From Candidatus Latescibacterota bacterium (GTDB taxonomy: Bacteria > Latescibacterota > UBA2968 > UBA8231), in assembly GCA_965242865.1 (NCBI GenBank), contig CBDETK010000013.1, forward strand, positions 1,216,001 through 1,280,000: a stretch of 64,000 nt of DNA, given 5' to 3'. Below the pieces are notes generated by a model, which ran no database searches, was not told where the DNA came from, and worked only from the letters and a program-made list of their open reading frames with translations. Shown piece by piece: positions 33,675 to 64,000 of the stretch. A program made the translations under genes and the position numbers. Position 1 is the first letter of the stretch, and the number at the start of each line of letters is the position of its first letter.

Positions 33675-35723
33675 ATGAAGTGCTCCGCATTTGATCGGAT
33701 CGCCCGGTTCGGCTTTATCCTGCTCATCGTCGTCCTCGCCGGGCTGGGCACCGCCCACATCCTCGTCCGCACGGCCACCTACGGCACCGCGTTCGGCACG
33801 GACTCCGCACTTTTCCTGTCCACGGCCCTGAACTTCCTCGCCGGCGAGGGCTGGCGGGATTTCGGAGGGGCCCCGCTGGTGGGCTGGCCGCCGTTGTTCC
33901 CCCTGCTGCTGGCGGCCTTCGGTTGGGTTGGCATCGAGCCGCTGGAGGCAGGGCGGTGGATCAACGCCGCGGCCTTTGGGCTGACCATCTTGGTAGCCGG
34001 CCTCTATCTGCGCTCCCAGCTCCGGTTGCAGGGGCTGGCGCTGGCCGCCAGCGTGGTCATCGCGGCCTCCGTTCCCCTGAGCTATTTCGCGGCAGGCTTC
34101 TTGACCGATCCCCTCTTCGTCTTGTTTACGCTCCTCGCCTTGATCCAGTTGGCGGCCTTCCTCCAGCGCGGTGGGTGGACGCCCCTGCTGTGGGGCGCGG
34201 TGTTTACCGCCTTAGCCGCGCTGACCCGCTATCCGGGCGTGGTGCTGATCAGCACCGGCGTCCTCCTGCTTGCTCCCCTCGCCCGGCTAAGGCACACCCT
34301 CGCCTTTGGCGCGTGCTCGTCCCTGCCCTTGTTGCCGGTATTGGCGCACAATTGGACGGTCTCCGGGTCCCTCGCAGGGGTGCGAAAAGGCTCGGCTCAA
34401 CCCCTATCCGAGGGGCTGAGCCAGACAGCCAATATATTCTGGAAATGGGCCATTCCCCCGCACAGGCCGGACGAACTAGTCGATTATCTCCTGTGGAGGG
34501 TGACCGGGCTGGGTGCGCCGGACTGGTTCGGTTCTCTCCTATGGACGACGACCGGGCTGGTTGTTGCGGCGGCGGTGGCGGTTGTCGTGCTATCTGGGCG
34601 CGGCTTAGGCATGGGCGAAAATCGGACCGCGCCGGCGTATTTCGGCCTAGCACCGGCTCTACTTTTCGGGGGGTTCGCCAGCGTTTACCTCGCATGCATG
34701 GTAGTAGTCTTTCCAATAATGCTCCCGGTGGCAATCTACGACCGCTACCTGCTGCCGGTGTATGTGCCGTTGCTGTTAGCGGCCGTGTTGCTGCTCGATC
34801 GGTTCCTGTCCATTGAGGTTGCGGGCCGGGTGGCCGTGGCTAAGTGGGGTCTGGCATCCCTCGTCTTGCTGGGGACCCTCGCCCACATCGGCTTCTCGGC
34901 GCAGAGAAATCTCCATCTTACCACCCAAGCGTATGTATCCGGGTTCCCAGAGGATGGGGCTTACAACGTCGCCTATTGGCGACATCACGCGACCCTGAAT
35001 TACGTTAAGGCCCACCTCCGCGATGGCAGGATTTACAGCAACAACCCATTCGTTGTCTATTTTGCCGCTCGGACCGCCGCCTTCGGCCAACCGCCGAATT
35101 TGCCGAGTGAGCTACGCAATTGGACGCAGGATGCGAGGTGGTGGGTCGAAGGCGGCGAAGACGAAGTGTATATCGTCTGGATCAAAGGCGACTATCGGGC
35201 TCAGTATCACGACTACAACCACTTTGACATTCGCTTCCTGCCCGGCGTAGAGGTGGTGGCCGACTTGTCCGACGGCGTGGTCTTCCGCGTAACGGCGGTC
35301 AAACCGTTCGATGAAGACAGGGTTCGCGCCGAGAAAAAACGCTACCAAGAACGCTACGTGGAGCAACTCCTCGCACAGGCCGGCGAGCGGGTGGTTCGCG
35401 CCGACTGGGACGTGTACCGCAAGGGACACAAGCTGACCTACTTCAAAAAGCCGTGTGCCCCGGCCGACGTGCAGGCCAAGTTCATTTTGCACATCTACCC
35501 CGCCGACCCGGGCGTCCTTTCCATCGCCCGCAGGCGGCACGGCTTTGACAACCTCGGCTTCCATTTCGACCAACTCAGCGCACTACACGCCATGCAGGTC
35601 GCCGACCAGTGTATCGCGATCGTCGAGCTGCCCGACTACGCCATCGACCGCATCCGGGTCGGCCAATGGATTGCCAACGAGAACCGCACCCGCTGGGATG
35701 CGGAGTTTCCGGCGAGCCGGTGA
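33675..35723 (+). CDS. GT-C (ArnT/PMT-like) membrane glycosyltransferase, paralog 1
   Basis: About 11-13 TM helices; TDS..FLSTALN..AGEG, WPPLFPLLL, LTDPLF, ALTRYPG and RYLLP motifs; soluble C-terminal domain with KKPC/FDNLGF. Confidence 0.75.
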   Translation: MKCSAFDRIARFGFILLIVVLAGLGTAHILVRTATYGTAFGTDSALFLSTALNFLAGEGWRDFGGAPLVGWPPLFPLLLAAFGWVGIEPLEAGRWINAAAFGLTILVAGLYLRSQLRLQGLALAASVVIAASVPLSYFAAGFLTDPLFVLFTLLALIQLAAFLQRGGWTPLLWGAVFTALAALTRYPGVVLISTGVLLLAPLARLRHTLAFGACSSLPLLPVLAHNWTVSGSLAGVRKGSAQPLSEGLSQTANIFWKWAIPPHRPDELVDYLLWRVTGLGAPDWFGSLLWTTTGLVVAAAVAVVVLSGRGLGMGENRTAPAYFGLAPALLFGGFASVYLACMVVVFPIMLPVAIYDRYLLPVYVPLLLAAVLLLDRFLSIEVAGRVAVAKWGLASLVLLGTLAHIGFSAQRNLHLTTQAYVSGFPEDGAYNVAYWRHHATLNYVKAHLRDGRIYSNNPFVVYFAARTAAFGQPPNLPSELRNWTQDARWWVEGGEDEVYIVWIKGDYRAQYHDYNHFDIRFLPGVEVVADLSDGVVFRVTAVKPFDEDRVRAEKKRYQERYVEQLLAQAGERVVRADWDVYRKGHKLTYFKKPCAPADVQAKFILHIYPADPGVLSIARRRHGFDNLGFHFDQLSALHAMQVADQCIAIVELPDYAIDRIRVGQWIANENRTRWDAEFPASR

Positions 35724-35826
35724 TACCGGACGCCGCGTCGCCCGGTGCATTCCGAGCCGCTGGATAACCGCATAGAGGGCAGAAGATCGCCCTAACTTGC
35801 GGGGCATCTATGAGGGAGAGAATTTG

Positions 35827-38148
35827 ATGAAGTGCTCTGCATTTGAGCGGCTCGCCCGGTTGGGGCGCGACCCCTTCGCGCTGCTCATCGCCATCCTCGC
35901 CGGGCTGGGCACCGTCCACATCCTCGTCCGCACCGCCACCTACGGCGCCGCGGTCACCTACGACTCCTCATTTCTTCTGTCCACGGCCATAAACTGCCTC
36001 GCCGGCGAGGGTTGGCGGAACTTCACGGGCTACCCGCTGGTAGGATGGGCGCCCTTGTTTCCCCTGCTGCTGGCGGCCTTGGGTTGGCTTGGCATTGAGC
36101 CGTTTGAGGCGGGTCGGCTGCTCAACGCCACCGCCTTCGGGCTGACCATCTTCGCCGCGGGCGACTATCTGCGCTCGCATCTCCGGTCGCGGGGGCTGGT
36201 GCTGGCCGCGACCGCGACCATCGCGGTTTCCCTGCCCTTGAGCGATCTCGCGTCCCACTTCTTGACCGATTCCCTCTTCGTCCTGTGGACGCTCCTCGCC
36301 TTGATCCAATTGGCGTCCTTCCTCCAGCGCGGCGAGCGGACGCCCCTGCTGTTAGGCGCGGTTTTCGCTACGCTGGCCGCGCTGACCCGCTACCCGGGCG
36401 TGGTCCTGATCGGCGCCGGCGTCTTGTTGCTGCTGGTGCGACGCCCCCTGCCGCTGGCCGCCCGGTTGAAAGACGCCATCGTATTTGGGGCCGTCTCATC
36501 CTTGCCCCTCGCCGGGGTGCTGACGCGCAACTGGGCGGTCTCTGGAACCCTGACCGGGTATAGGAAAGGGGCGGGGCGGTCCCTGTTCGATGGGCTGGGC
36601 CAAGTGGCCGAGGTGTTCCGGGCGTGGGTGATTCCCCCGAATGCGCCGGACGGGGTTGGTGCTCTCCTGTGGATAGCGGCCGGGCTGGTGGTGGCAGCGG
36701 GGGCGGTCGTCGTGGTATCCGGTCGCGGCTTCGGCCTGAGCAAGCAGGACCGCGGCGCGCTCTTGGGGTTCCCATTCGCGGTGTTCACCGTAGCCTACCT
36801 CCTGTTCATAGTCGCCATCGTGCCGCTGGTGATCCACTCTCAGATCCCCGCCCGCTACCTGCTGCCGGTGTATGTGCCGCTGCTGTTGGCCGCGGCGTTG
36901 CTGCTCGACCGGTTCCTGTCCATTGAGGCGGCGAGCTGGATGGCAGCCGCCAAGTGGGGGCTGGCGTCCCTCGTCCTGCTGGGCACCCTCGCCCACGTCG
37001 GCTTCTCGGCGCACAGGAACCTGACTATTACCGCCGAAGCACGAGTAGCCGGGTTTGAACGCTGGACGTTCAATGGCTCCTACTGGGCATCTTCCGAGAC
37101 CCTGCAGTACGTCAGAACCAACCTTCGCGCTGGGACGATTTACAGCAACGGCCCCACCTTGGTGTGGTTTTGGGATCGGACCGCGGCCCCGGGAAAGCAC
37201 CAAAAAATCCCGGACGGGCTTCACCATTTGACGTCGGCCCTACTGGCGTGGAGCACTGACGGCAGCCCATATATCGCATGGATTCGGAGTGAAGAGTCTT
37301 TTTACGCCTACGACGACTTCGACCTCCGCTGCCTGCCCGGGGTGGAACCCGTGGCCGAACTGGCCGACGGGGTTGTATTCCGCGTAACGGCGACCGAACC
37401 GTTCGATGCGGACCGGCATCTCGCCCGCAAACAACGCTACGTGCAGCAACTCATCGAACAGGCCGGCGAGCAGGTGGGCCGCTCCGACTGGGACGTGTAC
37501 CGCAAGGGACGCACGCTGACCTACCACAAAAAGCCGTGTGCCCCCGCCGATGTGCAGGCGTATTTCGTGTTGCAAATCATCCCCGACGACCCAGCCGACC
37601 TGCCAGCCGACCGCCAGCCATACGGATCGGACTGGCTCGCCTTCGATTTCCACAGACGCGGCGGCATCCGGCTCGACGACCAGTGTGTGGTGAGCACCCA
37701 ACTCCCCGACTACGCCACCCGCCACATCCAAGTCGGCCAGTGGCAGGCCAGCGACAACCGCATGCTCTGGCAAATGAAGGCCGAGGGCACGATGGAGCAA
37801 CTCATCGAGCAGGCCAGCGAGCGAGTGGTCCGCGCCGGCTGGAGCGTGTACCGCAGGGAACGCGAGCTGATTTACCGCAAGCAGCCGTGTACCGCGGCCG
37901 ATGTGCAGGCGAAGTTCGTTTTGCACATCGTCCCGGCCGACCCGGCCGACCTGCCAGCCCACCGCAAACAGTACGATTCTGAGAATCTCGACTTCTATTT
38001 CGACCAGTTCGGCCTCCGGCTCGACGACCAATGTACGGTGCTCGCCCCGCTCCCCTCCTACCCCATCCGCACCATCTATATCGGCCAGTGGATTGCCGCC
38101 GAGAACCGCACCCTCTGGGAAGCGGAGTTGTCCGGGGCCGGAGATTGA
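35827..38148 (+). CDS. GT-C glycosyltransferase paralog 2 (C-terminal domain duplicated)
   Basis: Same motifs as paralog 1, with two tandem EQLIEQA...LW domains. Confidence 0.75.
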   Translation: MKCSAFERLARLGRDPFALLIAILAGLGTVHILVRTATYGAAVTYDSSFLLSTAINCLAGEGWRNFTGYPLVGWAPLFPLLLAALGWLGIEPFEAGRLLNATAFGLTIFAAGDYLRSHLRSRGLVLAATATIAVSLPLSDLASHFLTDSLFVLWTLLALIQLASFLQRGERTPLLLGAVFATLAALTRYPGVVLIGAGVLLLLVRRPLPLAARLKDAIVFGAVSSLPLAGVLTRNWAVSGTLTGYRKGAGRSLFDGLGQVAEVFRAWVIPPNAPDGVGALLWIAAGLVVAAGAVVVVSGRGFGLSKQDRGALLGFPFAVFTVAYLLFIVAIVPLVIHSQIPARYLLPVYVPLLLAAALLLDRFLSIEAASWMAAAKWGLASLVLLGTLAHVGFSAHRNLTITAEARVAGFERWTFNGSYWASSETLQYVRTNLRAGTIYSNGPTLVWFWDRTAAPGKHQKIPDGLHHLTSALLAWSTDGSPYIAWIRSEESFYAYDDFDLRCLPGVEPVAELADGVVFRVTATEPFDADRHLARKQRYVQQLIEQAGEQVGRSDWDVYRKGRTLTYHKKPCAPADVQAYFVLQIIPDDPADLPADRQPYGSDWLAFDFHRRGGIRLDDQCVVSTQLPDYATRHIQVGQWQASDNRMLWQMKAEGTMEQLIEQASERVVRAGWSVYRRERELIYRKQPCTAADVQAKFVLHIVPADPADLPAHRKQYDSENLDFYFDQFGLRLDDQCTVLAPLPSYPIRTIYIGQWIAAENRTLWEAELSGAGD

Positions 38149-40067
38149 AACGGCTCATCGCCATCCTCGCCGGGCTGGGCACCGTCCACATCCTCGCCCG
38201 CACCGCCACCTACGGTGCCGCGGTCAACGCAGACACCACACTTCACCTCTCTACGGCCCTGAATTTCCTCGCCGGAGAGGGCTGGCAGGATTTCACGGGC
38301 GTACAGGCGGTGGAGTGGCCGCCCGGGTTCACCCTGCTGCTGGCGTTTGGCGGGCTTTTGGGCATTGAGCCGTGGGCGGCGGGTCGGCTGCTTAACGCCG
38401 CGGCCTTCGGGCTGACCATCCACGCCGCGGGCAACTATCTGCACTCGAATCTCCGGTCGCGGGGGCTGGCACTGGCCGCGTCCATGGCCATCGCGGCGTC
38501 CCTGCCGCTCACCTATTTCGCGTCCTACTGCATCACCGAGCCGCTCTTCGTCCTGTTCGCGCTCCTCGCCTTGATCCAACTGGCGACTTTCCTCCAGCGC
38601 GGCGAGCGGAGGCCCCTGCTATGGGCGGCGGTTTTCACTGCGCTGACCGCGCTGACCCGCTACCCGGGCGTGGTCCTGATCGGCACCGGCGTCCTCCTGC
38701 TGGTGCGACGCCCCCTGCCGCTGGCCGCCCGGCTGAAAGACGCCGTTGTATTTGGGGCCATCTCATCCTTGCCCCTCGCCGGTGTGCTGACGCACAACTG
38801 GGCGGTCTCCGGGACCTTGACCGGACGAAGAGATGGCTCGGGTCAGTCCCTAGCCGAGGGGTTGAGCCAAGTGGCCGAGGCATTCCGCGAGTGGGTCGTC
38901 CCCCCGAACGCGCCGGATGGGTTGGCGTATCTGCTGTGGCTGGCGGTCGGGTTAGTCGGGCTAGCCGGCGCGGTGGTCGTCCTGCGCCCCACCCGAAAGG
39001 GAGCGCCGCCGCCATCCTTTAGGTTGGAGCCGGCGCTCCCTTTCGGAGCGTTCGCCTTGATGTACCTCGTATTCATAATCGCCATCGTGCCCTTCACGGT
39101 GGGGTATGGCATCGACAGCCGCTACCTGCTGCCGGTGTACATGCCGCTGCTGTTGGTCGCGGTGTTCCTGCTCGATCGGTTCCTGTCCATCGAGACTACG
39201 GGCTGGATGGCTGCCGCCAAGTGGGGGCTGGCGTCCCTCGTCCTGCTAGGAGGCCTCGTCCACATCGGCTACTCGGCGCACGGGAACCTGACCATCACCG
39301 ACCAAGCCCGAGTAGCCGGGTTCGAGAACTGGACGTACAACGGGTCCTACTGGGAATCCTCCGAGACCCTGAAGTACATCCGAGATACCCGCATGGATGG
39401 CCGGATGTACAGCAACAACGCGTATCTTGCTTGGTTTGCAGACCGGACCGCGGCCCCGGGCAAGCACCAGCATCTCCCGGACGAGATTCACCGTTTGACG
39501 GCGGCCATACTGGAATGGAGCGCTGACGACAGCCCGTATATCGCATGGCTCCGGCGTGAAAAGTCTTTTTACGCCTACGACGAATTCGACCTCCGCTGCC
39601 TGCCCGGGGTGGAACCCGTGGCCGAACTGGACGATGGCGTCGTCTTCCGCGTAACGGCCGCCGAACCGTTCGATGCGGCAAGGCACCGCGCCCGCAAACA
39701 ACGCTACGTGCAGCAACTCGTCGAACAAGCCAGCGAGCGAGTAGGCCGCGCTGGCTGGGACGTGTACCGCACGGGACGCAAGCTGATTTACCGCAAACAG
39801 CCGTGCGCTTCCGCCGACGTGCAGGCCAAGCTCGTTTTGCACGTCATCCCCGTCGATCCGGCCGACTTGCCGACCGACCGCAAGCAGTACGGTTACGACA
39901 GCCTCGGCTTCTATTTCGACCAGCGCGAGAGCTTCTGGCTCGGCGACCAGTGCGTCGCGATCACCCAACTCCCCGCCTACCCCATCGGCCTCATCCGGGT
40001 CGGCCAGTGGATTTCTGTCGAGAACCGCACCCTCTGGGCAGCGGAGTTGTCCGGGGCCGAAGATTGA
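38145..40067 (+). CDS. GT-C glycosyltransferase paralog 3
   Basis: TTG start overlaps the previous TGA (TTGA). Same motifs. Confidence 0.75.
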   Translation: MKRLIAILAGLGTVHILARTATYGAAVNADTTLHLSTALNFLAGEGWQDFTGVQAVEWPPGFTLLLAFGGLLGIEPWAAGRLLNAAAFGLTIHAAGNYLHSNLRSRGLALAASMAIAASLPLTYFASYCITEPLFVLFALLALIQLATFLQRGERRPLLWAAVFTALTALTRYPGVVLIGTGVLLLVRRPLPLAARLKDAVVFGAISSLPLAGVLTHNWAVSGTLTGRRDGSGQSLAEGLSQVAEAFREWVVPPNAPDGLAYLLWLAVGLVGLAGAVVVLRPTRKGAPPPSFRLEPALPFGAFALMYLVFIIAIVPFTVGYGIDSRYLLPVYMPLLLVAVFLLDRFLSIETTGWMAAAKWGLASLVLLGGLVHIGYSAHGNLTITDQARVAGFENWTYNGSYWESSETLKYIRDTRMDGRMYSNNAYLAWFADRTAAPGKHQHLPDEIHRLTAAILEWSADDSPYIAWLRREKSFYAYDEFDLRCLPGVEPVAELDDGVVFRVTAAEPFDAARHRARKQRYVQQLVEQASERVGRAGWDVYRTGRKLIYRKQPCASADVQAKLVLHVIPVDPADLPTDRKQYGYDSLGFYFDQRESFWLGDQCVAITQLPAYPIGLIRVGQWISVENRTLWAAELSGAED

Positions 40068-42049
40068 AACGACTCGTCGCCATCCTCGCCGGGCTGGGCA
40101 CCGTCCACATCCTCGTCCGCACCGCCACCTACGGCCCGGCCGTCGGCACGGACTCCGTAATTCTCCTGTCTGCGGTCATGAGCTTCCTCGCCGGCGAGGG
40201 TTGGCGGGTTTTCACGGGCGGCGCGCTGGTGGGATGGCCGCCCTTGTTCCCCCTGCTGTTGGCGGCTGGGGGTTGGACCGGCCTCGATCTGCTGGCGGCC
40301 GGTCGGTGGATCAACGCCATCGCCTTCGGGCTGACCATCTTCGTCGCGGGGAACTATCTGCGCACCAATCTCCGGTCGCGGGGGTTGGTTCTCGTCGCCA
40401 CCGGGGCCATCGCGGCGTCCCTGCCCTTGAGCGATTTAGCGTCCAGCCTCCTGACCGAGCCGCTCTTCGTCCTGTTCGCACTCCTCGCCTTGATCCAGTT
40501 GGCGGCCTTCCTCCAGCGCGGCGGGCGGACGCCCCTGCTGTGGGGCGCGGTCTGCACCTCCTTAGCCGCGCTGACCCGCTGGCCGGGCGTGGTCCTGATC
40601 GGCACCGGCGTCCTGCTGCTGTTGCTGCGACGCACCCCACCGCTGGCCGCCCGCTTAAAACACGCCATCGTATATGGCACCGTCTCGTTCTTGCCCCTCG
40701 CGGTGGTGCTGACGCGCAACTTTATTCTCTACAATACCTGGACCGGGCGAGACGGCGGGGCGGGACAGTCCCTGTCCGAGGGGCTGAACCAAGTGGTGGC
40801 TGTATTCCGAGAGTGGGCGATTCCCCAAGACGCGCTGGACGGGTTTGACTATCTCCTGTGGAGGGCGACCGGGCTGAGCGCACCGGATGGGTTCGGTACT
40901 CTCCTGTGGGCGACGATTGGGTTGGTTGGGGTAGCGGCGGTTGGGGTGCTCGCTGTGGGCGGCGGGGAAAGGTCGTTGTCTTTCGGGTTGGGGCCGGTGC
41001 TCCCATTCGGGGGGTTCGCCCTAGCGTACCTCCTATTCATCGTCGCCATCGTACCCCTCACGGTTTATCAGCCGATCGACAGCCGCTACCTGCTGCCGGT
41101 GTACATGCCGCTGCTGTTGGGCGCGGTGTTCCTGCTCGATCGGTTCCTGTCCATTGAGGCGGCGGGATGGGTGGCCGTGGCCAAGTGGGGGCTGGCGTCC
41201 CTCGTCTTGCTGGGGGGCCTCGCCCACCTCGGCTTCTCGACGCAGAAGAATCTCCGTCTTACCGCCGAAGCCTATGGCTCTGGGTATCTGGACAGGACGT
41301 ACAACACCGCCTACTGGCAACATTCCGCGACCCTGCAGTACCTCAGGAATAACCGCATGGAGGGCAAAATTTATAGCAACAACTCGTCCCTCGTCTGGTT
41401 TGCGAATAGGACCATCGTCTATAAAAAGTATTGCAGGCTTCCCTATGAACTACGCGATGGCGATTGGACGCGGGAGCTGAGACAATGGTTCGAAGCGGGC
41501 GAAGACGTCCATATCGTCTGGATCAAAAACAGCTTTCGATCTGTTTATTTTGACTACGACGACCTCGACCTCCGCTTGCTGCCCGGCGTGGAGACGGTGG
41601 CCGAGTCGCCCGATGGCGTGGTCTTCCGCGCAACAGCGGCGATAACCGAGCCATTCAATGCGGACCAGCATCGCGCCCGCAAGCAACGCTACTTAAGGCA
41701 ACTCGTCGAACAGGCCGGCGAGCCGGTGGTGCGCGCCCGTTATGACGTGTACCGCAACGGACGCGAGCTGATTTACTTCAAACAGCCCTGTACCCCCGCG
41801 GACACGCAGGCCAAGTTCATTTTGCACGTCACCCCGGCCACCCCAAGCGTCCTGCCCAGCGCCCGCAAGCGGTATGGCTTTGACAACCTCGGCTTCCATT
41901 TCGACCGGCGCGGCGTGCAGGTCGGCGACCTGTGTATGGCGACCGCCCAACTCCCCGCCTATCCCATCGGCCGCATCCGGGTCGGCCAGTGGAGTTCCAG
42001 CGACAACCGCACCCTCTGGGACGCGGAGTTTTCCGGGATCGGGGATTGA
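40064..42049 (+). CDS. GT-C glycosyltransferase paralog 4
   Basis: TTGA-coupled start. Same motifs. Confidence 0.75.
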   Translation: MKRLVAILAGLGTVHILVRTATYGPAVGTDSVILLSAVMSFLAGEGWRVFTGGALVGWPPLFPLLLAAGGWTGLDLLAAGRWINAIAFGLTIFVAGNYLRTNLRSRGLVLVATGAIAASLPLSDLASSLLTEPLFVLFALLALIQLAAFLQRGGRTPLLWGAVCTSLAALTRWPGVVLIGTGVLLLLLRRTPPLAARLKHAIVYGTVSFLPLAVVLTRNFILYNTWTGRDGGAGQSLSEGLNQVVAVFREWAIPQDALDGFDYLLWRATGLSAPDGFGTLLWATIGLVGVAAVGVLAVGGGERSLSFGLGPVLPFGGFALAYLLFIVAIVPLTVYQPIDSRYLLPVYMPLLLGAVFLLDRFLSIEAAGWVAVAKWGLASLVLLGGLAHLGFSTQKNLRLTAEAYGSGYLDRTYNTAYWQHSATLQYLRNNRMEGKIYSNNSSLVWFANRTIVYKKYCRLPYELRDGDWTRELRQWFEAGEDVHIVWIKNSFRSVYFDYDDLDLRLLPGVETVAESPDGVVFRATAAITEPFNADQHRARKQRYLRQLVEQAGEPVVRARYDVYRNGRELIYFKQPCTPADTQAKFILHVTPATPSVLPSARKRYGFDNLGFHFDRRGVQVGDLCMATAQLPAYPIGRIRVGQWSSSDNRTLWDAEFSGIGD

Positions 42050-42075
42050 ATGTGTTTGCCGCCAAAGAAGGTTTT

Positions 42076-43761
42076 ATGAAAAACGTGCTGGCTTCGCCAC
42101 GGCTGCCGCTCGCGCTGCTGCTGCTCGCGCTATCGACGATGTTCCTGTTCGGCAACGACCGGGGCCACTTCTACCGGCCTGGGGCCCACGATTGGAATTC
42201 GTCAAGGGGGCTGGCGATCGCCGAAAACCTATCCTTCAAACACAACCTCCTGCTGTTCGACTTTCAAACCGTCGATGCAGAAGGCACGCCGCTCTACGTG
42301 CCATACGCCCGCTATCCGCTGGGCAGCTACGCGCTCATCAAGCTGGCCATCCTGCCCTTCGGACAGGACCTGTCGGCAAAAATCTACGCCGGCCGGATCC
42401 TGATGCTGCTGTTGTTTGCCGCGATGGTCGTCTTGGCGTACCACGCGCTGGCCCGGCTCACGGCCAATCGGTGGATCGGCCTGACCGCTACGCTCTTGGC
42501 CTTCTCCTCGCACTACTTCCTGTACTACAGCGACAAAATTTCCAATGGGGTGACGATGGGCCTTTTGGGGATCATGCTGACCTTCCACGGGATGGTCTTC
42601 TTCGTCTTGGAGGGCCGCTTCCGGCCGCTGCTGCTCAAGACGGGCGCGGCCCTGCTGCTGGGCTGGCATGTCTTCGCGCTGCTGCTCGCTTTCATCGTTG
42701 GCGGCTTGGTGAAGGAGAGCGTCCGGGCGCGGTCCGCGTTCGGTTGGCTTAATAGCTTGATTCGCAGCCGGTACGTGCGGCTCGGCGGCGTCGCGCTGCT
42801 TTTTGGCCTAGCGGTTCTGAGCTTCAACCTCGCCAACGAATACTTCATGCTGGACGACGGAAGGGCCCTGACGGAGGTGCCGACGCTCCTATCGCTGCAG
42901 AGTCGCATCGGCGCAAACGACGAGCACGACCCTTATTACGACGACTATCTGGCGTGGAAGCCTTTTTTACAAGAACAGTTCCACCGCATCGGCGTAATGT
43001 CCCTGCCCGCCGCGCTGCCGGGCTATGTGATCAATGTGATGGGCAACAGCCCGAATGCGGCACTGGAAAAATTGCAGGGTACTGCCATTGGAATTTTTGC
43101 GACCGGCGCGTGTTTGGTTGGTCTGGCCTTCGGCCCCCATAAGACCTTACTGGCACCCCTAGCCCTGTTCGGCTTTTGCTGGGCACTGCCGCTGCGCTAC
43201 TCCGTCTATGCCCATAGCCACGAGGGCCTGTTCTACATCGGCATCCCCCTCGTCCTGTTCTCGCTGGTCCTGCTATACCTGCGCAAGCTGGCCAAGGACG
43301 ACCGGCTCATCGCCTGCTTTGCGGCCGCGGCCGTGGGCATATTCGTTCTGTCCAGCTTCCGCACCAGTCTAATCGGCCACGACGCCAAAGCCGCCCAATT
43401 CCACGCAACCATGATTGCCGACTTTGAGGCTATCCGCGAAATAACGCGCGGGAAGGTCGTTTTTGTTCCCGCATCCTCCTCCGACGAGATGCAGCGGTTT
43501 GTCGGAGCGCGGTCGGCGTTGGATTACTACCTCGCCGGGAGTTTCATCCTATATAACGAACACCCGGGCCACGCCGACTTCGTTCTCAGCCGCGAACGCA
43601 AGGAGGGGCCGACACTGCTCACCCCAAACAACCGGCTGATGTTCCTATACGACGGGCCGTTTGCGTTTACGACAGCGAGTAGCCCCGATACTACATCGCT
43701 TCGGAGGCCGAGCCGTTCGGCTCCACCTGCCGATAGAACTTCTTCGCGCCCTTCTCAATAG
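42076..43761 (+). CDS. Distinct polytopic membrane protein, probable GT-C glycosyltransferase
   Basis: Multi-TM; HDWNS..LAIAENL and YARYPLG in the first loop. Not a close paralog. The 3' end overlaps the convergent gene. Confidence 0.6.
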   Translation: MKNVLASPRLPLALLLLALSTMFLFGNDRGHFYRPGAHDWNSSRGLAIAENLSFKHNLLLFDFQTVDAEGTPLYVPYARYPLGSYALIKLAILPFGQDLSAKIYAGRILMLLLFAAMVVLAYHALARLTANRWIGLTATLLAFSSHYFLYYSDKISNGVTMGLLGIMLTFHGMVFFVLEGRFRPLLLKTGAALLLGWHVFALLLAFIVGGLVKESVRARSAFGWLNSLIRSRYVRLGGVALLFGLAVLSFNLANEYFMLDDGRALTEVPTLLSLQSRIGANDEHDPYYDDYLAWKPFLQEQFHRIGVMSLPAALPGYVINVMGNSPNAALEKLQGTAIGIFATGACLVGLAFGPHKTLLAPLALFGFCWALPLRYSVYAHSHEGLFYIGIPLVLFSLVLLYLRKLAKDDRLIACFAAAAVGIFVLSSFRTSLIGHDAKAAQFHATMIADFEAIREITRGKVVFVPASSSDEMQRFVGARSALDYYLAGSFILYNEHPGHADFVLSRERKEGPTLLTPNNRLMFLYDGPFAFTTASSPDTTSLRRPSRSAPPADRTSSRPSQ

Positions 43762-52175: not shown

Positions 52176-52313
52176 TAAACCACCCTAGTCCACCGTGCTA
52201 ATAAAAAGCGGTTGGATGGCGTGGTGATCATTGAAGATTTGAATAAAAAAGCCGCGACGCCTCTTAAGTATCAACGAATAATAAATACATAAGTGATTGT
52301 TTTTAATAAATTT

Positions 52314-55477: not shown

Positions 55478-55590
55478 GTCGTCCATTCTCCACGGTCGTA
55501 GGCTGGGTGCGTAAGGACATGGCGGATATATACTTTTCCCCGATTGAAGTGAATAGAGGCAATCAGGCGATACTTATTGCCGGCGATACG
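55474..55590 (-). pseudogene. higB: C-terminal remnant of HigB toxin
   Basis: IAGNKYRLIASIHFNRGKVYIRHVLTHPAYDRGEWTT*. An in-frame stop lies shortly upstream and the N-half is missing. ATGA overlap with higA. Confidence 0.8.
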
Positions 55591-55659
55591 GTATCGCAAT
55601 CTGCGATATATTGCAATAAGCGGTCAGTCCGCCGCGATGCGGTTGAGAAACCTCGGCGG

Positions 55660-56042
55660 GCCGTAGACTCCATAACTTTTCTGTCCACGGCCACGAACTT
55701 CCTCGCGGGAGAGGGCTGGTGGGATGTCAGGGGCGACCCGCTGGTGGGATGGCCGCCGTTGTTCCCCCTGCTGCTGGCGGCCTCGGGTTGGGTCGGCCTT
55801 GATGCAGACCGGACCGCCGCCTCGGGAAAACACCAGCGTCTCCCGGACGAGCTTCACGATGTGATACCTCACATAATGGCGACATGGCGACCGGCGGCAC
55901 CGGCGCGCATATCGTTTGGTTCAGGAGGCAAAAGAATTTTTACGACGACGACGACATGAACCTCCGTCTCCTGCCCGGCGTGGAACCCGTGGCCAAACTG
56001 GCCGATGGCGTAGTATTCCGCGTCTGGGACGTGGACTTTTAG
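55660..56042 (+). pseudogene. Internally deleted GT-C paralog remnant
   Basis: DSITFLSTATNFLAGEGW..WPPLFPLLL is joined directly to ADRTAASGKHQRLPDE, then LPGVEPVAKLADGVVFRV is joined to WDVDF*. Confidence 0.8.
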
Positions 56043-56957: not shown

Positions 56958-57011
56958 TAATGGCCACTGGCCGGAAGCCCTGGAGACCCACCCTACTCAG
57001 GAGGAACCATC

Positions 57012-57308: not shown

Positions 57309-57406
57309 TGAACCACCCCGTCCCCGTAGATGGCGGCTGGACGGCGTGGTGATAATGGCCACTGGCCGGAAGCCCTAGAGACTCACCCCACTCAGGAGGA
57401 ACCATC

Positions 57407-57682: not shown

Positions 57683-57838
57683 TGAACCACCTAGTCCACC
57701 GTGCGGAGCGAAGATTGCCGAGCGAATAAAAAGCGGTTGGACGGCGTGGTGATCATTGAAGATTTGAATAAAAAAGCCGCGACGCATCCTGAGTATCAAC
57801 GAATAATAAATACGTAAGTGATTGTTTTTAATAAACTT

Positions 57839-59803
57839 ATGAAACGAGGGGGGGGGGGGGGAATTGCCTTCCTCGCCATCTTGGGCACCGCCCACATCCT
57901 CGTCCGCACCGCCCCCTCCGGAGCACTGCGCGGTGCCGACTCCATGAAATTCCTATACACCGCCATGAACTTCCTCGCGGGAGAAGGCTGGCAGGATTTC
58001 ATGGGCCTCCCGCTGACAGGATGGCCGCCCTTGTTCCCTCTGCTGCTGGCGGCCAGTGCCTGGGTTGGCATTGAGCCGGTGGAGGCGGGTCGGTGGATCA
58101 ACGCCACCGCCTTCGGGCTGACCATCCTCGCCGCGGGATGCTGGCTGTGCACGAATCTCCGGTCGCGGTGGCTGGTGCTGGCCACCACCGCGGTCGCGGC
58201 CTCCCTGCCCTTGAGCTATGAAGCGTCACGCTTCATTACCGAGCCCCTCTTCGTCCTGTTTACGCTCCTCGCCTTGATGCACTTGGCGTCCTTCCTCCAC
58301 CGGCGGACGGACGCGCCCCTGTGGTGGGCGGCGGGTTTCACCGCGCTGGCCGCGCTGACCCGCTATCCGGGCGTGGTGCTAATCGGCACCGGCGTCCTGC
58401 TGCTGCTGCCCCGCGCCCGGCTCAAGCAGACCCTCGGCTTTGGCGCGATCTCGTCCCTGCCCTTGCTGGCGGTATTGGTGCATAATTGGGCGGTCTCCGA
58501 GACCCTGACCGGGAGACCTACGAAGACCTCGGGACAGTCCCTATCCGCTGGGCTGAGCCAGATCGTTGATGTATTCAGTGAGTGGGTCGTCCCTCCGAAC
58601 GCACCGGATGGGGTGGCGTATCTGCTGTGGCTGGCGGTCGGGTTGGTCGGGCTGGCCGGCGCGGCGGTCGTCCTGCACCGGTCGCCAGCCGGACCCAGGG
58701 CCGCGCCGGCGTATTTCCGCTTGGAGCCGGCTATCCCATTCGGGGTATTCGCCGTAGCCTACTCCGTATCTCTGGTCGCTGTCGTGCCCTTCACGGTAAC
58801 TCAGATCGTCGACAGCCGCTACCTGCTGCCGGTGTATGTGCCGCTGCTATTGACGGCGGTGTTGCTGTTGGACCGGTTCCTGTCCATCGAGATGTGGGTC
58901 GGAGGGGTTGCCATCCGGTACGGTCTGGCGTCCCTCGTCTTGCTGGCGTCCCTCGCCCACACCGGCTTCTCAGCGCGAAGAAACCTCCAAATTACCGCCA
59001 GAATATTGGAAGGCGGGTGGGTTCCTCGCACTCCCTCGCAGGCAACTCATGCCTCTTGGCCACATTCCGATTGGCAATATTCCGAGACCCTGATGTACTT
59101 TAGGACCAACCGCATGGATGGCAGGATTTACACCAACGACATCGGATTCCTCGCTTGGTCTGAGGATTGGCTCACCGCCCCAGGAGAGTACCGAAAGTAC
59201 CGACAAATCCCGCGCGGGAAGCCAAACAGGAAGGGATGGACCGAGATCGAGGCCGGAGCCTATATCGTTTGGTTTGACAGAGCCCATGATCCAGTTCATT
59301 ATCGCTACGATGCCCTTGATTACCGTCTCCTGCCTGGCGTGGAAACCGTGGCCGAACTGGCCGACGGCGTGGTCCTCCGCGTACTCCGCCAAACGACAGC
59401 CGAACCCTTCGAGACACAAAGGCATCGCGCCCGCAAACAACGCTACATCAACCAACTCATCCAACAGGCTAACGAGCGAGTAGAGCGCGCTGGCTGGACC
59501 GTGTACCGCACCGGACGCAAGCTGACCTACTTCAAAAAGCCGTGTACCCGCGCCGATGTGCAGGCCAAGTTCGTCTTGCACGTCACCCCCGCCGATTTGG
59601 CCGACCTGCTCGCCCACCGTCAGCGATACGGCTTTGACAATCTCGACTTCTATTTCGACCGGCACGACGTCCGGCTCTACAACGAGTGTGTGGAGGTCAT
59701 CCGCCTCCCCCCTTACCCCATCGACCGTATCCGGGTCGGCCAGTGGATTTCCGCCGAGAACCGCACCCTCTGGGACGCAGAATTTGCGGGGGCCGGGGAT
59801 TGA
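57839..59803 (+). CDS. GT-C glycosyltransferase paralog 6; 5' G14 tract in frame
   Basis: ATG AAA CGA G14 AATTGCC reads MKRGGGGGIAFLAILG. All family motifs present. Confidence 0.75.
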   Translation: MKRGGGGGIAFLAILGTAHILVRTAPSGALRGADSMKFLYTAMNFLAGEGWQDFMGLPLTGWPPLFPLLLAASAWVGIEPVEAGRWINATAFGLTILAAGCWLCTNLRSRWLVLATTAVAASLPLSYEASRFITEPLFVLFTLLALMHLASFLHRRTDAPLWWAAGFTALAALTRYPGVVLIGTGVLLLLPRARLKQTLGFGAISSLPLLAVLVHNWAVSETLTGRPTKTSGQSLSAGLSQIVDVFSEWVVPPNAPDGVAYLLWLAVGLVGLAGAAVVLHRSPAGPRAAPAYFRLEPAIPFGVFAVAYSVSLVAVVPFTVTQIVDSRYLLPVYVPLLLTAVLLLDRFLSIEMWVGGVAIRYGLASLVLLASLAHTGFSARRNLQITARILEGGWVPRTPSQATHASWPHSDWQYSETLMYFRTNRMDGRIYTNDIGFLAWSEDWLTAPGEYRKYRQIPRGKPNRKGWTEIEAGAYIVWFDRAHDPVHYRYDALDYRLLPGVETVAELADGVVLRVLRQTTAEPFETQRHRARKQRYINQLIQQANERVERAGWTVYRTGRKLTYFKKPCTRADVQAKFVLHVTPADLADLLAHRQRYGFDNLDFYFDRHDVRLYNECVEVIRLPPYPIDRIRVGQWISAENRTLWDAEFAGAGD

Positions 59804-59806
59804 ACG

Positions 59807-61819
59807 ATGAAGTCCTCCGCCATCGAGCGGCTCACCCGGTTCGGACGCGACCCCTTCATGCTGCTTACCGCCTTGATCGCCGGGCTGGGCACTGCCCACA
59901 TCCTCGTCCGCACCGCCACCTACGGAGCGAAGACCACCTACGACTCCGTATATTTCCTGTACACGGCCCTGAATTTCCTCACCGGAGAGGGCTGGCGGGA
60001 TCTCTCAGACACCCCGCTGGTCGTATGGCCGCCCTTGTTTCCCCTGCTGCTAGCGGCCGGTGGCTGGGTTCGCATCGATCCGGTGGAGGCGGGTCGGTTT
60101 ATCAACGCCACCGCCTTCGGGCTGACCATCCTCGCCGCCGGGTGCTGGCTGCGCTCAAATCTCCGGTTGCAGTGGCTGGCACTGGCCGCCACCGCGACCA
60201 TCGCGGCGTCCTTGCCTTTGAGCCATTTCGCGTCGTGGATCAAGACCGACTTCCTCTTCGTCCTGTTGACGCTCCTCGCCTTGGTCCAGTTGGCGGCCTT
60301 CCTGCATCGCGGCGGGCGGACGCTGCTGCTGCTGGGCGCGGTTTGCACCGCGCTGGCCGCGGTGACCCGCTATCCGGGCGTGGTCTTGATAGGCGTCGGC
60401 GTCCTCATACTGCTGGGGCGGCGCACCCCGCCGCTGGCCGCCCGGTTGAAAGACGCCGTCGCATTTGGGGCTGTCTCATCCTTGCCCCTCTCCGGAGTGC
60501 TGATGTACAACTGGACGGTCTCCGGCACCCTGACCGGGGGGAGAAGCGGGGCGGGGCAGTCCCTGTCCGCTGGGCTGAACCAAGTGGCGGATGTATTCAG
60601 GGAGTGGGTGATTCCCCCGAATGTGCCAGACGGGTTTGGCTATCTCCTGTGGACCGCGGCTGGGCTGGTTGTAGCAGCGGGGGTGGTCGTCGTGGTGGTC
60701 GGTCGCGGCTTAGGCCTGGGAGGAAAGAATCGGCCGGCGTCGCCGTTCTTAGGGTTGGGGCCGGCACTCCCATTCGGGGGGTTCGCCGTAGCTTACCTCG
60801 GATTCATGGTCGCCATCGTGCCCTTCACGGTTTATCAGGGCATCGACAGCCGCTACCTGCTGCCGGTCTATGTCCCGCTGCTGTTGACGGTCGTGTTCTT
60901 GCTGGATCGGTTCCTGTCCATCGAGGCGACAGGTCGGATAGCCGCGGTCCGGTCCGGTCTGGCGTCCCTCGTCCTGCTGGCCGCCCTCGCCCACACCGGC
61001 TTCTCGGCGCACAGAAACCTCCGCATTACCGCCGCAGCTTATGTAGCCGGGTTCGAAAGCTGGACGCTCAATGGCTCCTACTGGGAACCTTCCGAGACCC
61101 TGAAGTACATCAGAACCCGCCTTAGCGATGGCAGGATTTTCAGCAACAACCCCCACCTTGCTTGGTTTTGGGATCGGACCGCCGCCCTCGGAAAGCACCG
61201 GGGGCTCCCGGGCAGGCTTCACAAGGTGATACCGCGCATAATGCGGAGTACCGAGGGCGACGGCGCACATATCGTTTGGCTCCATAATGAAAAACCAGGC
61301 TCTCTTCACGACGACGACCGGCACTACTACGATGCTCTGGACATCCGCTGCCTGCCCGGCGTGGAACCCGTGGCCGAGCTATCCGACGGGGTGGTGTTCC
61401 GCGTAACGGCGGCGACCGAACCGTTCGATGCGGACCGGCATCGCGCCCGGAGACAACGCTACTTAGACCAACTCCTCGAACCGGCCGGCGAGCGGGTGGT
61501 CCGCGCCGACTGGGACGTGTACCGCAACGGACGCAAGCTGACCTATCTCAAAAAGCCATGTACACCAGCCGATGTGCAGGCCAAGTTCGTTTTGCGCGTC
61601 ATCCCGGCCGACCCAGCCGATCTGCCAGCCTCCCGCCAGCGGTACGGCTTTGACAACCTCGGCTTCTATTTCGACCGGCGCGGCTTCCGGCACGGCGACC
61701 AGTGTATGGCGACCGTTCATCTACCCACCTACGCCATCGGCCACATCCGGGTCGGTCAGTGGATTTCCGCCGAGAACCGCACCCTCTGGGAAGCGGAGTT
61801 TGCGGGGGCCGGGGATTGA
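59807..61819 (+). CDS. GT-C glycosyltransferase paralog 7
   Basis: Starts 3 nt after the paralog 6 stop. All family motifs present. Confidence 0.75.
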   Translation: MKSSAIERLTRFGRDPFMLLTALIAGLGTAHILVRTATYGAKTTYDSVYFLYTALNFLTGEGWRDLSDTPLVVWPPLFPLLLAAGGWVRIDPVEAGRFINATAFGLTILAAGCWLRSNLRLQWLALAATATIAASLPLSHFASWIKTDFLFVLLTLLALVQLAAFLHRGGRTLLLLGAVCTALAAVTRYPGVVLIGVGVLILLGRRTPPLAARLKDAVAFGAVSSLPLSGVLMYNWTVSGTLTGGRSGAGQSLSAGLNQVADVFREWVIPPNVPDGFGYLLWTAAGLVVAAGVVVVVVGRGLGLGGKNRPASPFLGLGPALPFGGFAVAYLGFMVAIVPFTVYQGIDSRYLLPVYVPLLLTVVFLLDRFLSIEATGRIAAVRSGLASLVLLAALAHTGFSAHRNLRITAAAYVAGFESWTLNGSYWEPSETLKYIRTRLSDGRIFSNNPHLAWFWDRTAALGKHRGLPGRLHKVIPRIMRSTEGDGAHIVWLHNEKPGSLHDDDRHYYDALDIRCLPGVEPVAELSDGVVFRVTAATEPFDADRHRARRQRYLDQLLEPAGERVVRADWDVYRNGRKLTYLKKPCTPADVQAKFVLRVIPADPADLPASRQRYGFDNLGFYFDRRGFRHGDQCMATVHLPTYAIGHIRVGQWISAENRTLWEAEFAGAGD

Positions 61820-61996
61820 CCCTCTTTTGGGGACACCCCTATCTTTAGACAGGGCGGCGAAAATAGGTTGTACCTCCGTAGCCCCGGCACGGGCAGGCTC
61901 GGATGCGGATGGCACTAGACTAAGAATAATAACATAAGTGATTGTTTTTACTGAATTTATGATGGGGAGGGGGGGGGGAGATTTACCCTCTCCACG

Positions 61997-64000
61997 GTGA
62001 AGTCCTCCGCATTCGAGCGGCTCGCCCGGTTCGGGCGCGACCCCTTCATGCTGCTCATCGTCGTCCTCGCCGGGCTAGGCACCGCCCACATCCTCGTCCG
62101 CACCGCCGCCTATGGTGGGGGAGGCCACTACGACTCCGTGCGCTTCCTGTCCACAGCCATGAACTTCCTCGCCGGCGAGGGCTGGCGGGATTTCAGGGGC
62201 GAACCGATGACGCAGTGGCCGCCTTTGTTCCCTCTGCTGCTGGCGGCTCTCGGTTGGGTGGGCATCGAGCCGCAGGCGGCGGGTCGGTTTATCAACGCCA
62301 CGGCCTTTGGGCTGACTATCCTCGCCGCGGGCTGCTGGCTACGCTCAAATCTCCGGTCGCAGTGGCTGGCAGTGGTCGCCACCGCGACCATCGCGGCTTC
62401 CCTGCCCTTGAGCAAACTCGCGTCCTACTTCTTTAACGACTCCCTCTTCGTCCTGTTTACGCTCCTCGCCTTGATGCACTTGGCGTCCTTCCTCCATCGG
62501 CGGACGACCGCGCCCCTGTGGTGGGCGGCGGGTTTCACCGCGCTGGCCGCGCTGACCCGCTATCCGGGCGTGGCCCTGATCGGCGTCGGCGTCCTGCTGC
62601 TGCTGCCCCGCGCCCGGCTCAAGCAGACCCTCGGCTTTGGCGCGATCTCGTCCCTGCCCTTGCTGGGAGTATTGGCGCACAACTGGGCGGTCACCGGGCA
62701 CCTGACCCGGGCAACAAGGAACACCCTATCGGCTGGGATGAGCCAGACCGTCAAGGTGTTCGGCGAGTGGATCGTCCGGGCAACAGGGAACAGAACAAAT
62801 GCTACCGGGCAGTCCCTATCCGAGGGACTAAGCCAGACTGTCAATGTGTTTCGCGAGTGGGTCGTCCCCGCGAACGCGCCGGATGGGGTGGCGTATCTGC
62901 TGTGGCTGGCGGTCGCCGCAGTCGGGCTGGCCGGTGCCGCGGTCGTCCTGCACACCACCCGAATGCGAAGCGACGACAGCGGGAGAGCCCACGCATCGTA
63001 TTTCCATTTAGGGCCGGTTATCCCTTTCGGGGTGTTCGCCCTAGCCTATCCCGTATTCATGGTCGCTGTCGTGCCCTTAACGATTGATCAAGGCATCGAC
63101 AGCCGCTACCTGCTGCCGGTGTATGTGCCCCCGCTATTGGCGGCGGTGTTCCTGCTGGACCGGTTCCTGTCCATTGAGGCGGCAGGCTGGAGGGTTGCCG
63201 TCCGGTACGGTCTGGCGTCCCTCATCCTGCTCGGTGCCCTCGCCCACACCGGCTTATCGGCGCACAGAAACCTCCGTATTACCGCCAGAGCATTGGAAGA
63301 CGGGTACTTAGGGTTCTGGGCGGACAATACCTTTTGGCAACCTTCCGAGACCCTGAATTACATTAGGACCAACCACATGGACGGCAGGATTTACAGCAAC
63401 GATCCCTTCCTCGCTTGGTCTGAGGAGAAGATCGCCGCCCCGGGCAAGTACCGAATGATCCCGCACGGGAAGTCAAAGCAGAAGGGATGGACCGAGATCG
63501 AGGCCGGAGCCTATATCGTTTGGTTTGACAGACTCCATAATCCAAGGGGGCTTCGCTACGACTCCTTTGACTTCCGTCTGCTGCCCGACGTGGAAACCGT
63601 GGCCGAACTGGCCGACGGCGTGGTACTCCGCGTACTCCGCCGAACAACAGTCGGATCCCTCGATATACAAAGGCACGCCCGCAAACAACGCTACGTGGAC
63701 CAACTCATCCAACAGGCCAGCCAGCGAGTCGAGCGCGCCGGCTGGACCGTGTGCCGCACCGGACGCAAGCTGACCTACTTCAAAAACCCGTGTACCCTCG
63801 CCGACGTGCAGGCCAAGTTCGTCTTGCACGTCACCCCCGCCGACTTGGCCGACCTGCCCGCCTACCGCCAGCGATACGGCTTTGACAATCTCGACTTCTA
63901 TTTTGACCGGAGCGATGTCCGACGCGATAACCCGTGTGTGGAGATCATCCGACTCCCCGCTTACCCCATCGGTCGCATCCGAGTCGGTCAGTGGATTTCC
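61997..64000 (+). CDS. GT-C glycosyltransferase paralog 8 (runs off window end); G10 tract upstream
   Basis: GTG AAG TCC TCC GCA TTC GAG CGG. The same frame is kept at 63602 and 63962. Missed by the ORF track because there is no stop in the window. Confidence 0.75.
   Translation, partial: MKSSAFERLARFGRDPFMLLIVVLAGLGTAHILVRTAAYGGGGHYDSVRFLSTAMNFLAGEGWRDFRGEPMTQWPPLFPLLLAALGWVGIEPQAAGRFINATAFGLTILAAGCWLRSNLRSQWLAVVATATIAASLPLSKLASYFFNDSLFVLFTLLALMHLASFLHRRTTAPLWWAAGFTALAALTRYPGVALIGVGVLLLLPRARLKQTLGFGAISSLPLLGVLAHNWAVTGHLTRATRNTLSAGMSQTVKVFGEWIVRATGNRTNATGQSLSEGLSQTVNVFREWVVPANAPDGVAYLLWLAVAAVGLAGAAVVLHTTRMRSDDSGRAHASYFHLGPVIPFGVFALAYPVFMVAVVPLTIDQGIDSRYLLPVYVPPLLAAVFLLDRFLSIEAAGWRVAVRYGLASLILLGALAHTGLSAHRNLRITARALEDGYLGFWADNTFWQPSETLNYIRTNHMDGRIYSNDPFLAWSEEKIAAPGKYRMIPHGKSKQKGWTEIEAGAYIVWFDRLHNPRGLRYDSFDFRLLPDVETVAELADGVVLRVLRRTTVGSLDIQRHARKQRYVDQLIQQASQRVERAGWTVCRTGRKLTYFKNPCTLADVQAKFVLHVTPADLADLPAYRQRYGFDNLDFYFDRSDVRRDNPCVEIIRLPAYPIGRIRVGQWIS

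Follow-up and report, generated by a model that had tools for sequence, protein, structure and literature searches.

A candidate phase-variable repertoire of GT-C glycosyltransferases in an uncultured, sponge-associated Latescibacterota bacterium

The genome of a Candidatus Latescibacterota bacterium (GenBank assembly GCA_965242865.1; 6.0 Mb in 13 contigs, ~63% GC, largest single contig 5.6 Mb) contains a large family of polytopic membrane proteins, eight of which are encoded in a stretch of 64,000 nucleotides (nt) of contig CBDETK010000013.1 (here C13; G000:C13:1216001-1280000). This whole stretch is referred to as the window, and positions in it are counted from its first letter. An original prediction, made from the letters of the DNA, had proposed that the stretch holds a large tandem array of diversified GT-C glycosyltransferases and a candidate variable surface-glycosylation system. 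In our analysis the family is probably a phase-variable surface-glycosylation repertoire of GT-C enzymes. This reading draws on a predicted GT-C fold and on poly-G tracts found in mixed frame states at the 5' ends of family genes, the latter giving independent support to the idea of variable decoration. As judged from its sequence, the anatomy of the tracts is that of a slipped-strand contingency locus, with an over-represented homopolymer at the 5' end and mixed frames in otherwise intact genes. The window contains the predicted eight mutual paralogs and one remnant, all on the + strand:

33675..35723, +, g1, a 682-amino acid (aa) GT-C paralog (predicted) with a transmembrane (TM) part, a periplasmic alpha/beta domain and one immunoglobulin (Ig)-like Cys-pair domain
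35827..38148, +, g2, a 773-aa paralog with two C-terminal Ig-like domains; the start is ATG 35827 (TTG 35797 in the list of open reading frames, ORFs)
38145..40067, +, g3, a 640-aa paralog whose TTG start overlaps the TGA stop of g2
40064..42049, +, g4, a 661-aa paralog whose TTG start overlaps the TGA stop of g3
52293..52328, +, putative switch region of g7: GTG 52293, conserved AT-rich start with a 22-nt core at 52295-52316, G8 tract at 52321-52328
52329..54981, +, body of g7, a ~880-aa paralog with a duplicated periplasmic plus Ig-like module; frame intact
55582..56024, +, frameshifted N-terminal paralog remnant (tblastn pieces of 100 and 68 aa)
57818..59803, +, g8, a 661-aa paralog: GTG 57818, leader core 57820-57841, G14 tract 57848-57861
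59807..61819, +, g9, a 670-aa paralog; ATG 3 nt after the g8 stop (gap 59804-59806)
61938..61978, +, putative switch region of g10: GTG 61938, leader core 61940-61961, G4-A-G10 with the G10 at 61969-61978
61997..64000, +, body of g10, continuing 51 nt beyond the window to 64051, with a coupled paralog next

The AlphaFold2 model of g1, built from a 40-sequence alignment, was of high quality (predicted local distance difference test, pLDDT, 89.1; predicted template-modeling score, pTM, 0.89). In a Foldseek comparison with the PDB, all 40 matches at E <= 0.001 were GT-C enzymes, led by ArnT (5f15/5ezm; E 2.5e-7) and followed by STT3, Pmt4, ALG12/ALG9, AftB, AftA, PglB, AglB, Emb, AftD, and DPY19. 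Because no other kind of enzyme was matched at this threshold, the family is assigned from the model to the GT-C membrane fold, as had been proposed. Sequence searches of the PDB, by phmmer and by profile, gave no match to the membrane part. Four residues (D43, R357, C594, and C646) are invariant in the 40-sequence alignment, and P72, P73, R185, Y186, P361, and D375 are conserved in at least 90% of the sequences; the predicted motif pattern (D-S-x-x-F/Y...WPP, LT[DE], LTR[YP], and RYxLP), which we take to typify ArnT/PMT-type enzymes, is thus present in the paralogs. D43 lies just after TM1 (helix 5-32) in the g1 model.

The part of g1 after the membrane core (residues 425-682) was modeled separately (pLDDT 90.4) and compared with 48,161 PDB representatives. 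Residues 432-540 resemble the C-terminal globular domains of AglB-S2 (3vu0, Z 6.8, 103 residues aligned) and PglB (3aag, Z 6.5, 102 aligned), and residues 576-682 form an Ig/fibronectin type III (FN3)-like beta-sandwich (best Z 7.4); Z values below 8 are in the range of common arrangements. The Ig/FN3 match is generic, so the fold class of this Cys-pair domain is known and its family is not. No Pfam entry matched the domain, in keeping with the earlier statement that it was not recognized as a characterized family. It occurs twice in g2 and g7 and in up to ~10 stretches in relatives, one example being a protein of 1851 aa. As a lead only, the ESM Atlas relates the C-terminal domain to unnamed clusters, at scores of up to 0.82.

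The resemblance to AglB and PglB raises the question of the acceptor. The same switchable enzymes might modify proteins, by periplasmic O- or N-type glycosylation (PMT-like or oligosaccharyltransferase-like) of secreted, eukaryote-like surface proteins, and not lipopolysaccharide (LPS) or polysaccharide. In its favor, the GT-C core is followed, after the last TM helix, by ~102 residues that resemble the periplasmic domains of AglB and PglB (Z 6.5-6.8); the top fold matches include Pmt4 and STT3, and the weak Pfam matches of the family are to PMT_2 and PMT. However, these Z values are low, ArnT, a lipid A transferase, ranks above PglB, AglB, and STT3 as the best fold match, and no MIR domain or TPR repeats were detected in the Pfam scan. 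In addition, the WWDYG-type motif, searched as WW[DE][YFW]G, was present in 0/34 paralogs, and the family was therefore not filed under the oligosaccharyltransferases. We regard protein acceptors as rather unlikely, if still worth keeping in view.

Evidence that expression of the family may be switched came from the 5' ends of its genes. Alignment of upstream DNA revealed a conserved AT-rich start in 17 of the 34 paralogs found genome-wide, in which RTG is followed by codons for I/V-V-F-N-K-F-M, two to three further codons, and a run of G. This leader is shared by genes at the head of a transcription unit, and in 10 genes the G tract lies within ~10 codons of the start; g1 has neither leader nor tract, and a decayed leader-like stretch precedes g2. 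When the genome was searched with a 22-nt leader core at <=3 mismatches, all 15 matches were at family 5' ends and the reversed control gave 0; three of them are in the window (52295, 57820, and 61940), against 0 expected by shuffling. The ten long tracts comprise G8 (g7 and a copy at 4,637 kb), G9, G10 (g10 and a copy at 286 kb), G13 (twice), G14 (g8), G16, and G19. As assembled, 4/10 genes with a run of at least eight G are in frame and 6/10 are out of frame, whereas leader-bearing genes in which the tract has decayed to five G or fewer, or is interrupted, are in frame in 8/8 cases; the hypergeometric probability of finding all six out-of-frame genes among those with long tracts is 0.011 (210/18564, calculated by hand). 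In every out-of-frame gene the downstream enzyme frame is open for >650 codons. The window holds both states: g8 (G14) is in frame, the start of g7 is out of frame and would be restored by G7 or G10, and g10 is out of frame and would be restored by one additional G or by the loss of two. The flanks of the g7 and g8 tracts are 93% identical and the tracts (G8 vs. G14) differ by 6 nt. Copies that are in frame encode 2-6 Gly after M-I/V-V-F-N-K-F-M.

The same design was found beyond the source genome, in another species. In a related Latescibacterota metagenome-assembled genome (MAG; G031, 5.38 Mb in a single contig), there are five copies of the leader. Four precede family genes, with G11-A-G9 in one that is in frame, G26 in one that is out of frame, and short tracts in the other two, both in frame; the fifth, with G10, stands before a different membrane protein. 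Relatives in other assemblies have N-termini reading M-I-V-F-N-K-F-M-R-G-G or M-R-G-G. Within the source genome the lengths of G/C runs are bimodally distributed, with 401, 116, 24, 8, 5, and 3 runs of 7 to 12 nt, respectively, and then 6 of 13, 6 of 14, 4 of 15, 2 of 16, 5 of 17, 2 of 19, 2 of 20, and 1 of 22 nt. Runs of at least 7, 8, or 9 nt are ~3-fold fewer than expected, while 31 runs of at least 12 nt were observed where composition predicts 5. Of the 44 runs of at least 10 nt, about 37 are at the 5' contexts of three multicopy families: the GT-C genes, ~21 lipoproteins, and 8 secreted enzymes. Runs of at least 12 nt are present, in very different numbers, in 23 of 31 genomes (the source and 30 relatives); long tracts are thus shared across the wider group and are not peculiar to the source genome.

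A simpler account of these features is a constitutive GT-C set that builds one complex glycan or glycosylates many surface proteins, with the G run encoding a glycine linker and the out-of-frame cases reflecting homopolymer errors in the assembly. The glycine residues encoded by the in-frame copies, the presence of mismatch repair genes, and the absence of read support for length variation are all compatible with this account. Against it, a glycine linker needs no pure GGG codons over 8-19 nt (26 in G031), the out-of-frame genes are confined to the long tracts (6/10, vs. 0/8 for decayed ones), and long runs are both in excess and concentrated in three gene-family contexts. One of these contexts is non-coding (363 nt upstream of a start in the one case measured), and the g7 and g8 tracts differ by 6 nt between nearly identical flanks. 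Taken together, we think a constitutive set unlikely.

Several results nevertheless weigh against the phase-variable reading. Among the eight window paralogs, five had Pfam matches below threshold only (PMT_2, PF13231, 16.7-21.7 vs. 26.1 bits; PMT, PF02366, 20.7 vs. 22.7 bits) and three had none; NCBIfam likewise gave no match near its cut-offs for the paralogs. Donor genes of the GtrA/GtrB type were absent beside the arrays examined, and the only genome match to the GtrA-like family PF04138 is at 3.57 Mb, far from any array (no systematic search was made for GT2 neighbors, and small window ORFs were unscanned). Change in tract length has no read- or strain-level support in 11 metagenome runs, for which the data were contigs only: X1, X7, X8, and X10 contigs have no indels at 52321-52328, 57848-57861, or 61969-61978, a result that is uninformative given the few hundred nt they cover over paralogs, and a 20-nt AT-rich leader pattern found no family 5' end among the metagenome matches listed (119 loci in unrelated AT-rich DNA). 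The protein collection contains no near-identical ortholog of g8, the best non-self match being 77% identical. The genome has mutS and mutL, which also rules out loss of mismatch repair as the cause of the tracts. Finally, long reads may have been used for the assembly, and because these are prone to misjudge the length of homopolymers, any one ON/OFF call could be mistaken; that the tracts exist, where they lie, and how well they are conserved is unaffected by such errors.

The size of the family was established with tblastn against the whole genome, which gave 34 intact paralogs (stop-to-stop frames with a match of at least 600 aa), each with a frame of at least 657 aa and no internal stops, in addition to several fragments. 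All are on C13, in clusters of 6, 4, 4, 4, 3, and 2 genes and eleven singletons. In G031 there were 71 matches, at least 42 of them near full length, including ~23 consecutive paralogs on one strand over 48 kb (G031:C1:1453852-1502248). At E <= 1e-20, the family was found in 2/18 genomes of the same genus, with 2 matches each (0-2 matches per genome), and in 2/12 other genomes of the class, with 8 and 21 matches, compared with 42 in the source genome. These counts (34, at least 42, and 0-2 in related genomes) show that copy number depends strongly on lineage; the cross-genome comparison that the original prediction had called for thus revealed numbers that are not identical at the species level. 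Among 8000 scored database candidates, 619 proteins matched at E <= 1e-3, and 681 of the 50%-identity cluster representatives matched the family at E <= 1e-30. No named protein was among the matches listed (120 relatives), some of which carry precomputed PF02366/PF13231 labels, and one database protein (P0108) has the same length and N-terminus as g4. A related-locus search with g1 as the query returned one locus, in a Candidatus Latescibacterota record. The source organism or close relatives are present in runs labeled as sponge metagenomes, with X1 contigs of up to 2.3 kb at ~97.5% identity.

That the array is an assembly artefact, with strain variants collapsed or strung together into a chimera, might be suspected from the short metagenome contigs over the paralogs, the many paralog joints in them, and a bin contamination estimate of 6.84%, but it is very unlikely because the paralogs are 55-92% identical in protein, far past strain variation, contigs of 4086 and 4373 nt from two runs have 0 differences over the genes between the arrays, and the independent single-contig MAG has the larger array described above; neighboring copies are also joined precisely by stop/start overlaps.

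Divergence among the paralogs was measured for 33 of them (528 pairs), leaving out a 39%-identical copy at 4,888 kb. Protein identity has a median of 62%. The membrane core is best conserved, with a majority residue frequency of ~0.75-0.88 at residues 21-220 and 361-380. Variation is greatest in residues 221-320, a stretch rich in indels and of low pLDDT, and in the periplasmic alpha/beta domain (421-520). Nei-Gojobori medians were 0.28 for dN, 0.46 for dS, and 0.59 for dN/dS, with regional dN/dS of 0.52-0.64. A ratio of ~0.6 is high for a polytopic enzyme and is compatible with fast diversification, although codon bias and gene conversion can distort dS. Conversion at the 5' end was considered and rejected. 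The TM1 DNA is nearly identical across paralogs, yet synonymous-codon identity there (0.80-0.84) is within the range found elsewhere (0.50-0.87), so there is no distinct 5' conversion hot spot, and amino acid conservation together with codon bias suffices to explain the likeness. Metagenome contigs contain paralog-to-paralog joints, for example, from 59803 to 61998 (X1) and from 53110 to 58645 (X7 and X8), and it is ambiguous whether they represent strain recombinants or rearrangements, or assembly across shared words. The notion of a repertoire locus thus holds as far as copy number and diversification are concerned; its growth and shrinkage by recombination, also part of the original prediction, did not gain support, since the joints are ambiguous and no conversion hot spot was found.

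Under the phase-variable reading, each paralog would be an inner-membrane GT-C enzyme with an ArnT-like core, an invariant Asp in the first periplasmic loop, an alpha/beta domain, and at least one Ig-like domain with a disulfide. If it works like all GT-C enzymes of solved structure, it would transfer a sugar from a lipid-phosphate-linked donor to an envelope acceptor outside the cytoplasmic membrane. The paralogs probably differ in acceptor or linkage, which would be encoded in the 221-320 loop and the periplasmic alpha/beta domain. The design of the leader suggests that slipped-strand mispairing changes tract length and so places the head-gene enzyme in or out of frame, making its expression stochastic, and downstream paralogs with a stop/start overlap may follow the state of the head gene. 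Within a population, envelope glycan decorations would then be present in many combinations, plausibly of benefit to a sponge symbiont against phages or in host recognition.

The closest structural relative is ArnT (GT83), with a TM-score of 0.53 on the target. Both have a multihelix GT-C core followed by a periplasmic alpha/beta domain, and D43 may be the counterpart of the acidic residue in the first periplasmic loop of ArnT. The two differ in that sequence identity is 14-16%, the family has the additional Ig-like Cys-pair domain(s), and there are 34 paralogs against a single arnT gene; no arn-type neighbors were found among the window ORFs scanned. The mycobacterial Emb and AftD enzymes, also among the fold matches, similarly combine a GT-C core with C-terminal beta-sandwich, carbohydrate-binding-type domains, but their TM-scores are much lower (0.22-0.25 on the target), and we take their domain order to be different and the family to lack an AcpM context.

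In function, the closest analogue appears to be the phase-variable gtr operons of Salmonella. GtrC is a serotype-specific membrane transferase that uses a lipid-linked sugar donor, and each gtr operon carries gtrA and gtrB. In the family described here, by contrast, the GtrA-like gene is far from the arrays, there are 34-42+ copies and not a handful, and the putative switch has a homopolymer design where that of Salmonella is epigenetic. In the accessible text of the relevant reports, Salmonella and its phages have several horizontally variable gtr operons per genome that modify the O-antigen and are stochastically ON or OFF, with phase variation via Dam/OxyR (PMC2909390, PMC3688519), and O-antigen phase variation is linked to coexistence with phages (PMC12541327). 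In mechanism, the closest analogue seems to be the poly-G glycan genes of Campylobacter and Neisseria. These share with the family a G/C homopolymer in the 5' coding region, ON/OFF control by frame, many loci, and a relation to glycans. The phase-variable glycosyltransferases of such pathogens are mostly soluble or peripheral GT-A/GT-B enzymes, and the organisms are low in GC, whereas here a single expanded GT-C family in a symbiont of 63% GC has a shared N-terminal peptide and leader and coupled downstream paralogs. Contingency genes of this poly-G/C type for surface glycans are described, in the portions available, for Campylobacter, Neisseria, and Haemophilus (PMC8355987, PMC5084427).

The two other tract-bearing families were also characterized. 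The lipoprotein class comprises ~21 loci on C13 (e.g., 29160-29172, outside the window), in which G11-G22 on one strand lies between a sequence ending in GAGAATTTTC and a 25-nt AT-rich motif. This is the non-coding context noted above; in the one case measured, the tract is on the strand opposite to the lipoprotein gene. The proteins are lipoproteins of ~550-600 aa with leucine-rich repeats and low-density lipoprotein receptor class B (YWTD) repeats, of "eukaryote-like" character, and ~1.4 kb comprising the 5' part of the gene and upstream DNA is repeated at 85-92% identity. In the third class (C13 2707756, 3302172, 3887772, 3892157, 4675744, 1636418, and 2391609; C7 3165), poly-C of 10-19 nt in the N-terminal coding region encodes a proline run after K-S-L-K-N-N-K-L in secreted proteins of 465-1068 aa, among them an arylsulfotransferase-like protein and an fn3-GSDH-cytochrome c protein. 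G/C runs of 10-19 nt are also present on the small contigs C5, C7, C8, and C10.

The quasi-palindromic 25-nt motif (TAAGT, 2 nt, TTGTTTTT, and a variable AT-rich part ending in TTA) lies next to the tract in each of the three families, and in the window it is found at 52290-52316, 57815-57841, and 61935-61961. In the GT genes it precedes the G run; in the other two families it follows the run, as read on the G strand. In two of the families it is coding. Inspected by eye as a hairpin, it pairs well at the lipoprotein loci and poorly in the GT leaders, and this idea was dropped. The motif might act in cis as a dedicated element that sets or favors slippage. Tentatively, contingency may extend across the genome of this sponge symbiont, with the GT-C repertoire as one of its arms and with glycans and host-mimicking surface proteins shuffled together. 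If so, surface identity would be combinatorial, and in a mutualist, not a pathogen.

In the window, the family does not form one continuous array, and its two stretches are separated by 8.6 kb that hold other genes. The paralog runs are all on the same strand, as had been predicted for a single large array, but genes on both strands intervene at 43.7-52.3 kb. The other details predicted for the locus were borne out: it begins 148 nt (predicted, ~150) after a tRNA gene, stop/start overlaps (TTG/TGA) that suggest translational coupling are present at 38145-38148 (g2/g3) and 40064-40067 (g3/g4), and the array is still running at the window edge, where the g10/g11 junction reads TGATG and g11, outside the window, extends the array to genome position 1282021. 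One piece of the remnant matches residues 32-88 of g1 at 67% identity. Three further features complete the account:

33451..33526, +, tRNA-Ala(TGC), identified with ARAGORN, 148 nt 5' of the first paralog, g1
42073..43761, +, g5, a 562-aa multi-TM protein 24 nt 3' of g4, outside the family by sequence
56172-56957, short-chain dehydrogenase/reductase (SDR) gene between the remnant and g8

The placement of g5 as a distant relative of the family was rejected. Its hhalign probability against the family profile is ~1%, and its only tblastn matches to the family come from an out-of-frame overlap with the 3' end of g4. Language-model features place it among PMT_2-type clusters (0.98-0.99), and as a lead only, g5 is probably a different GT-C enzyme of the PMT_2 type.

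The intervening 8.6 kb encodes a Peripla_BP_6 protein, a DUF4143/PDC-S01 ATPase, and three proteins without a Pfam match. The ATPase (AAA_14/DUF4143; 44727-46199, +), between the two array halves, matches the candidate defense family PDC-S01 (E 1.5e-92). Contig depth at 46002-48002 is raised several-fold in 4/4 metagenome runs, which suggests a repeat or mobile DNA, and GC drops to 0.527 between 48 and 50 kb. Neither Pfam nor PADLOC gave a match for the ORFs at 46206-47258 and 47853-48920. A 661-aa protein (49687-51672, -) has no family match; elsewhere the assembly encodes six paralogs of it, 30-35% identical, five of them on C13 and the sixth on C8. A gene that ends just 5' of the g7 leader (51453-52175, +) encodes a protein of 240 aa with heptad-like repeats rich in Q/N and a TM helix at the C-terminus; the DNA of the gene's 3' end recurs before the g8 leader, and the duplicated unit therefore included this gene. 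On the 5' side of tRNA-Ala are housekeeping genes, namely the dcw cluster (ftsZ, ftsA, ftsQ, mur ligases, and a penicillin-binding protein) and glnE, as well as a 669-aa protein (3572-5581, -) made up almost entirely of ankyrin repeats (Ank_4, E 1.3e-108, 11 stretches).

Homopolymer phase variation of surface glycans is textbook knowledge for a few host-adapted pathogens. A search of full-text literature, limited to main texts outside the subscription journals, turned up neither this family nor any case of homopolymer phase variation in sponge symbionts, and the accessible text of a paper on sponge-associated Latescibacterota mentions glycosyltransferases only as a carbohydrate-active enzyme class. 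The switch logic and the fold class are thus known, and what is new is the family, its domain make-up, its scale, and the host lineage. The same logic would operate in uncultured, high-GC, sponge-associated Latescibacterota at an unusual scale, with 34 to >42 copies and runs of ~23 genes. The family defines a new periplasmic Cys-pair Ig-like module, used in up to ~10 copies per protein, and the locus provides a natural library of related GT-C enzymes, in which the variable periplasmic parts could show how acceptor specificity is determined. Its purpose may be the evasion of host or phage. If confirmed, stochastic diversification of surface glycans would be a general strategy of animal symbionts, with a bearing on phage pressure and on how a sponge tells its symbionts from food.

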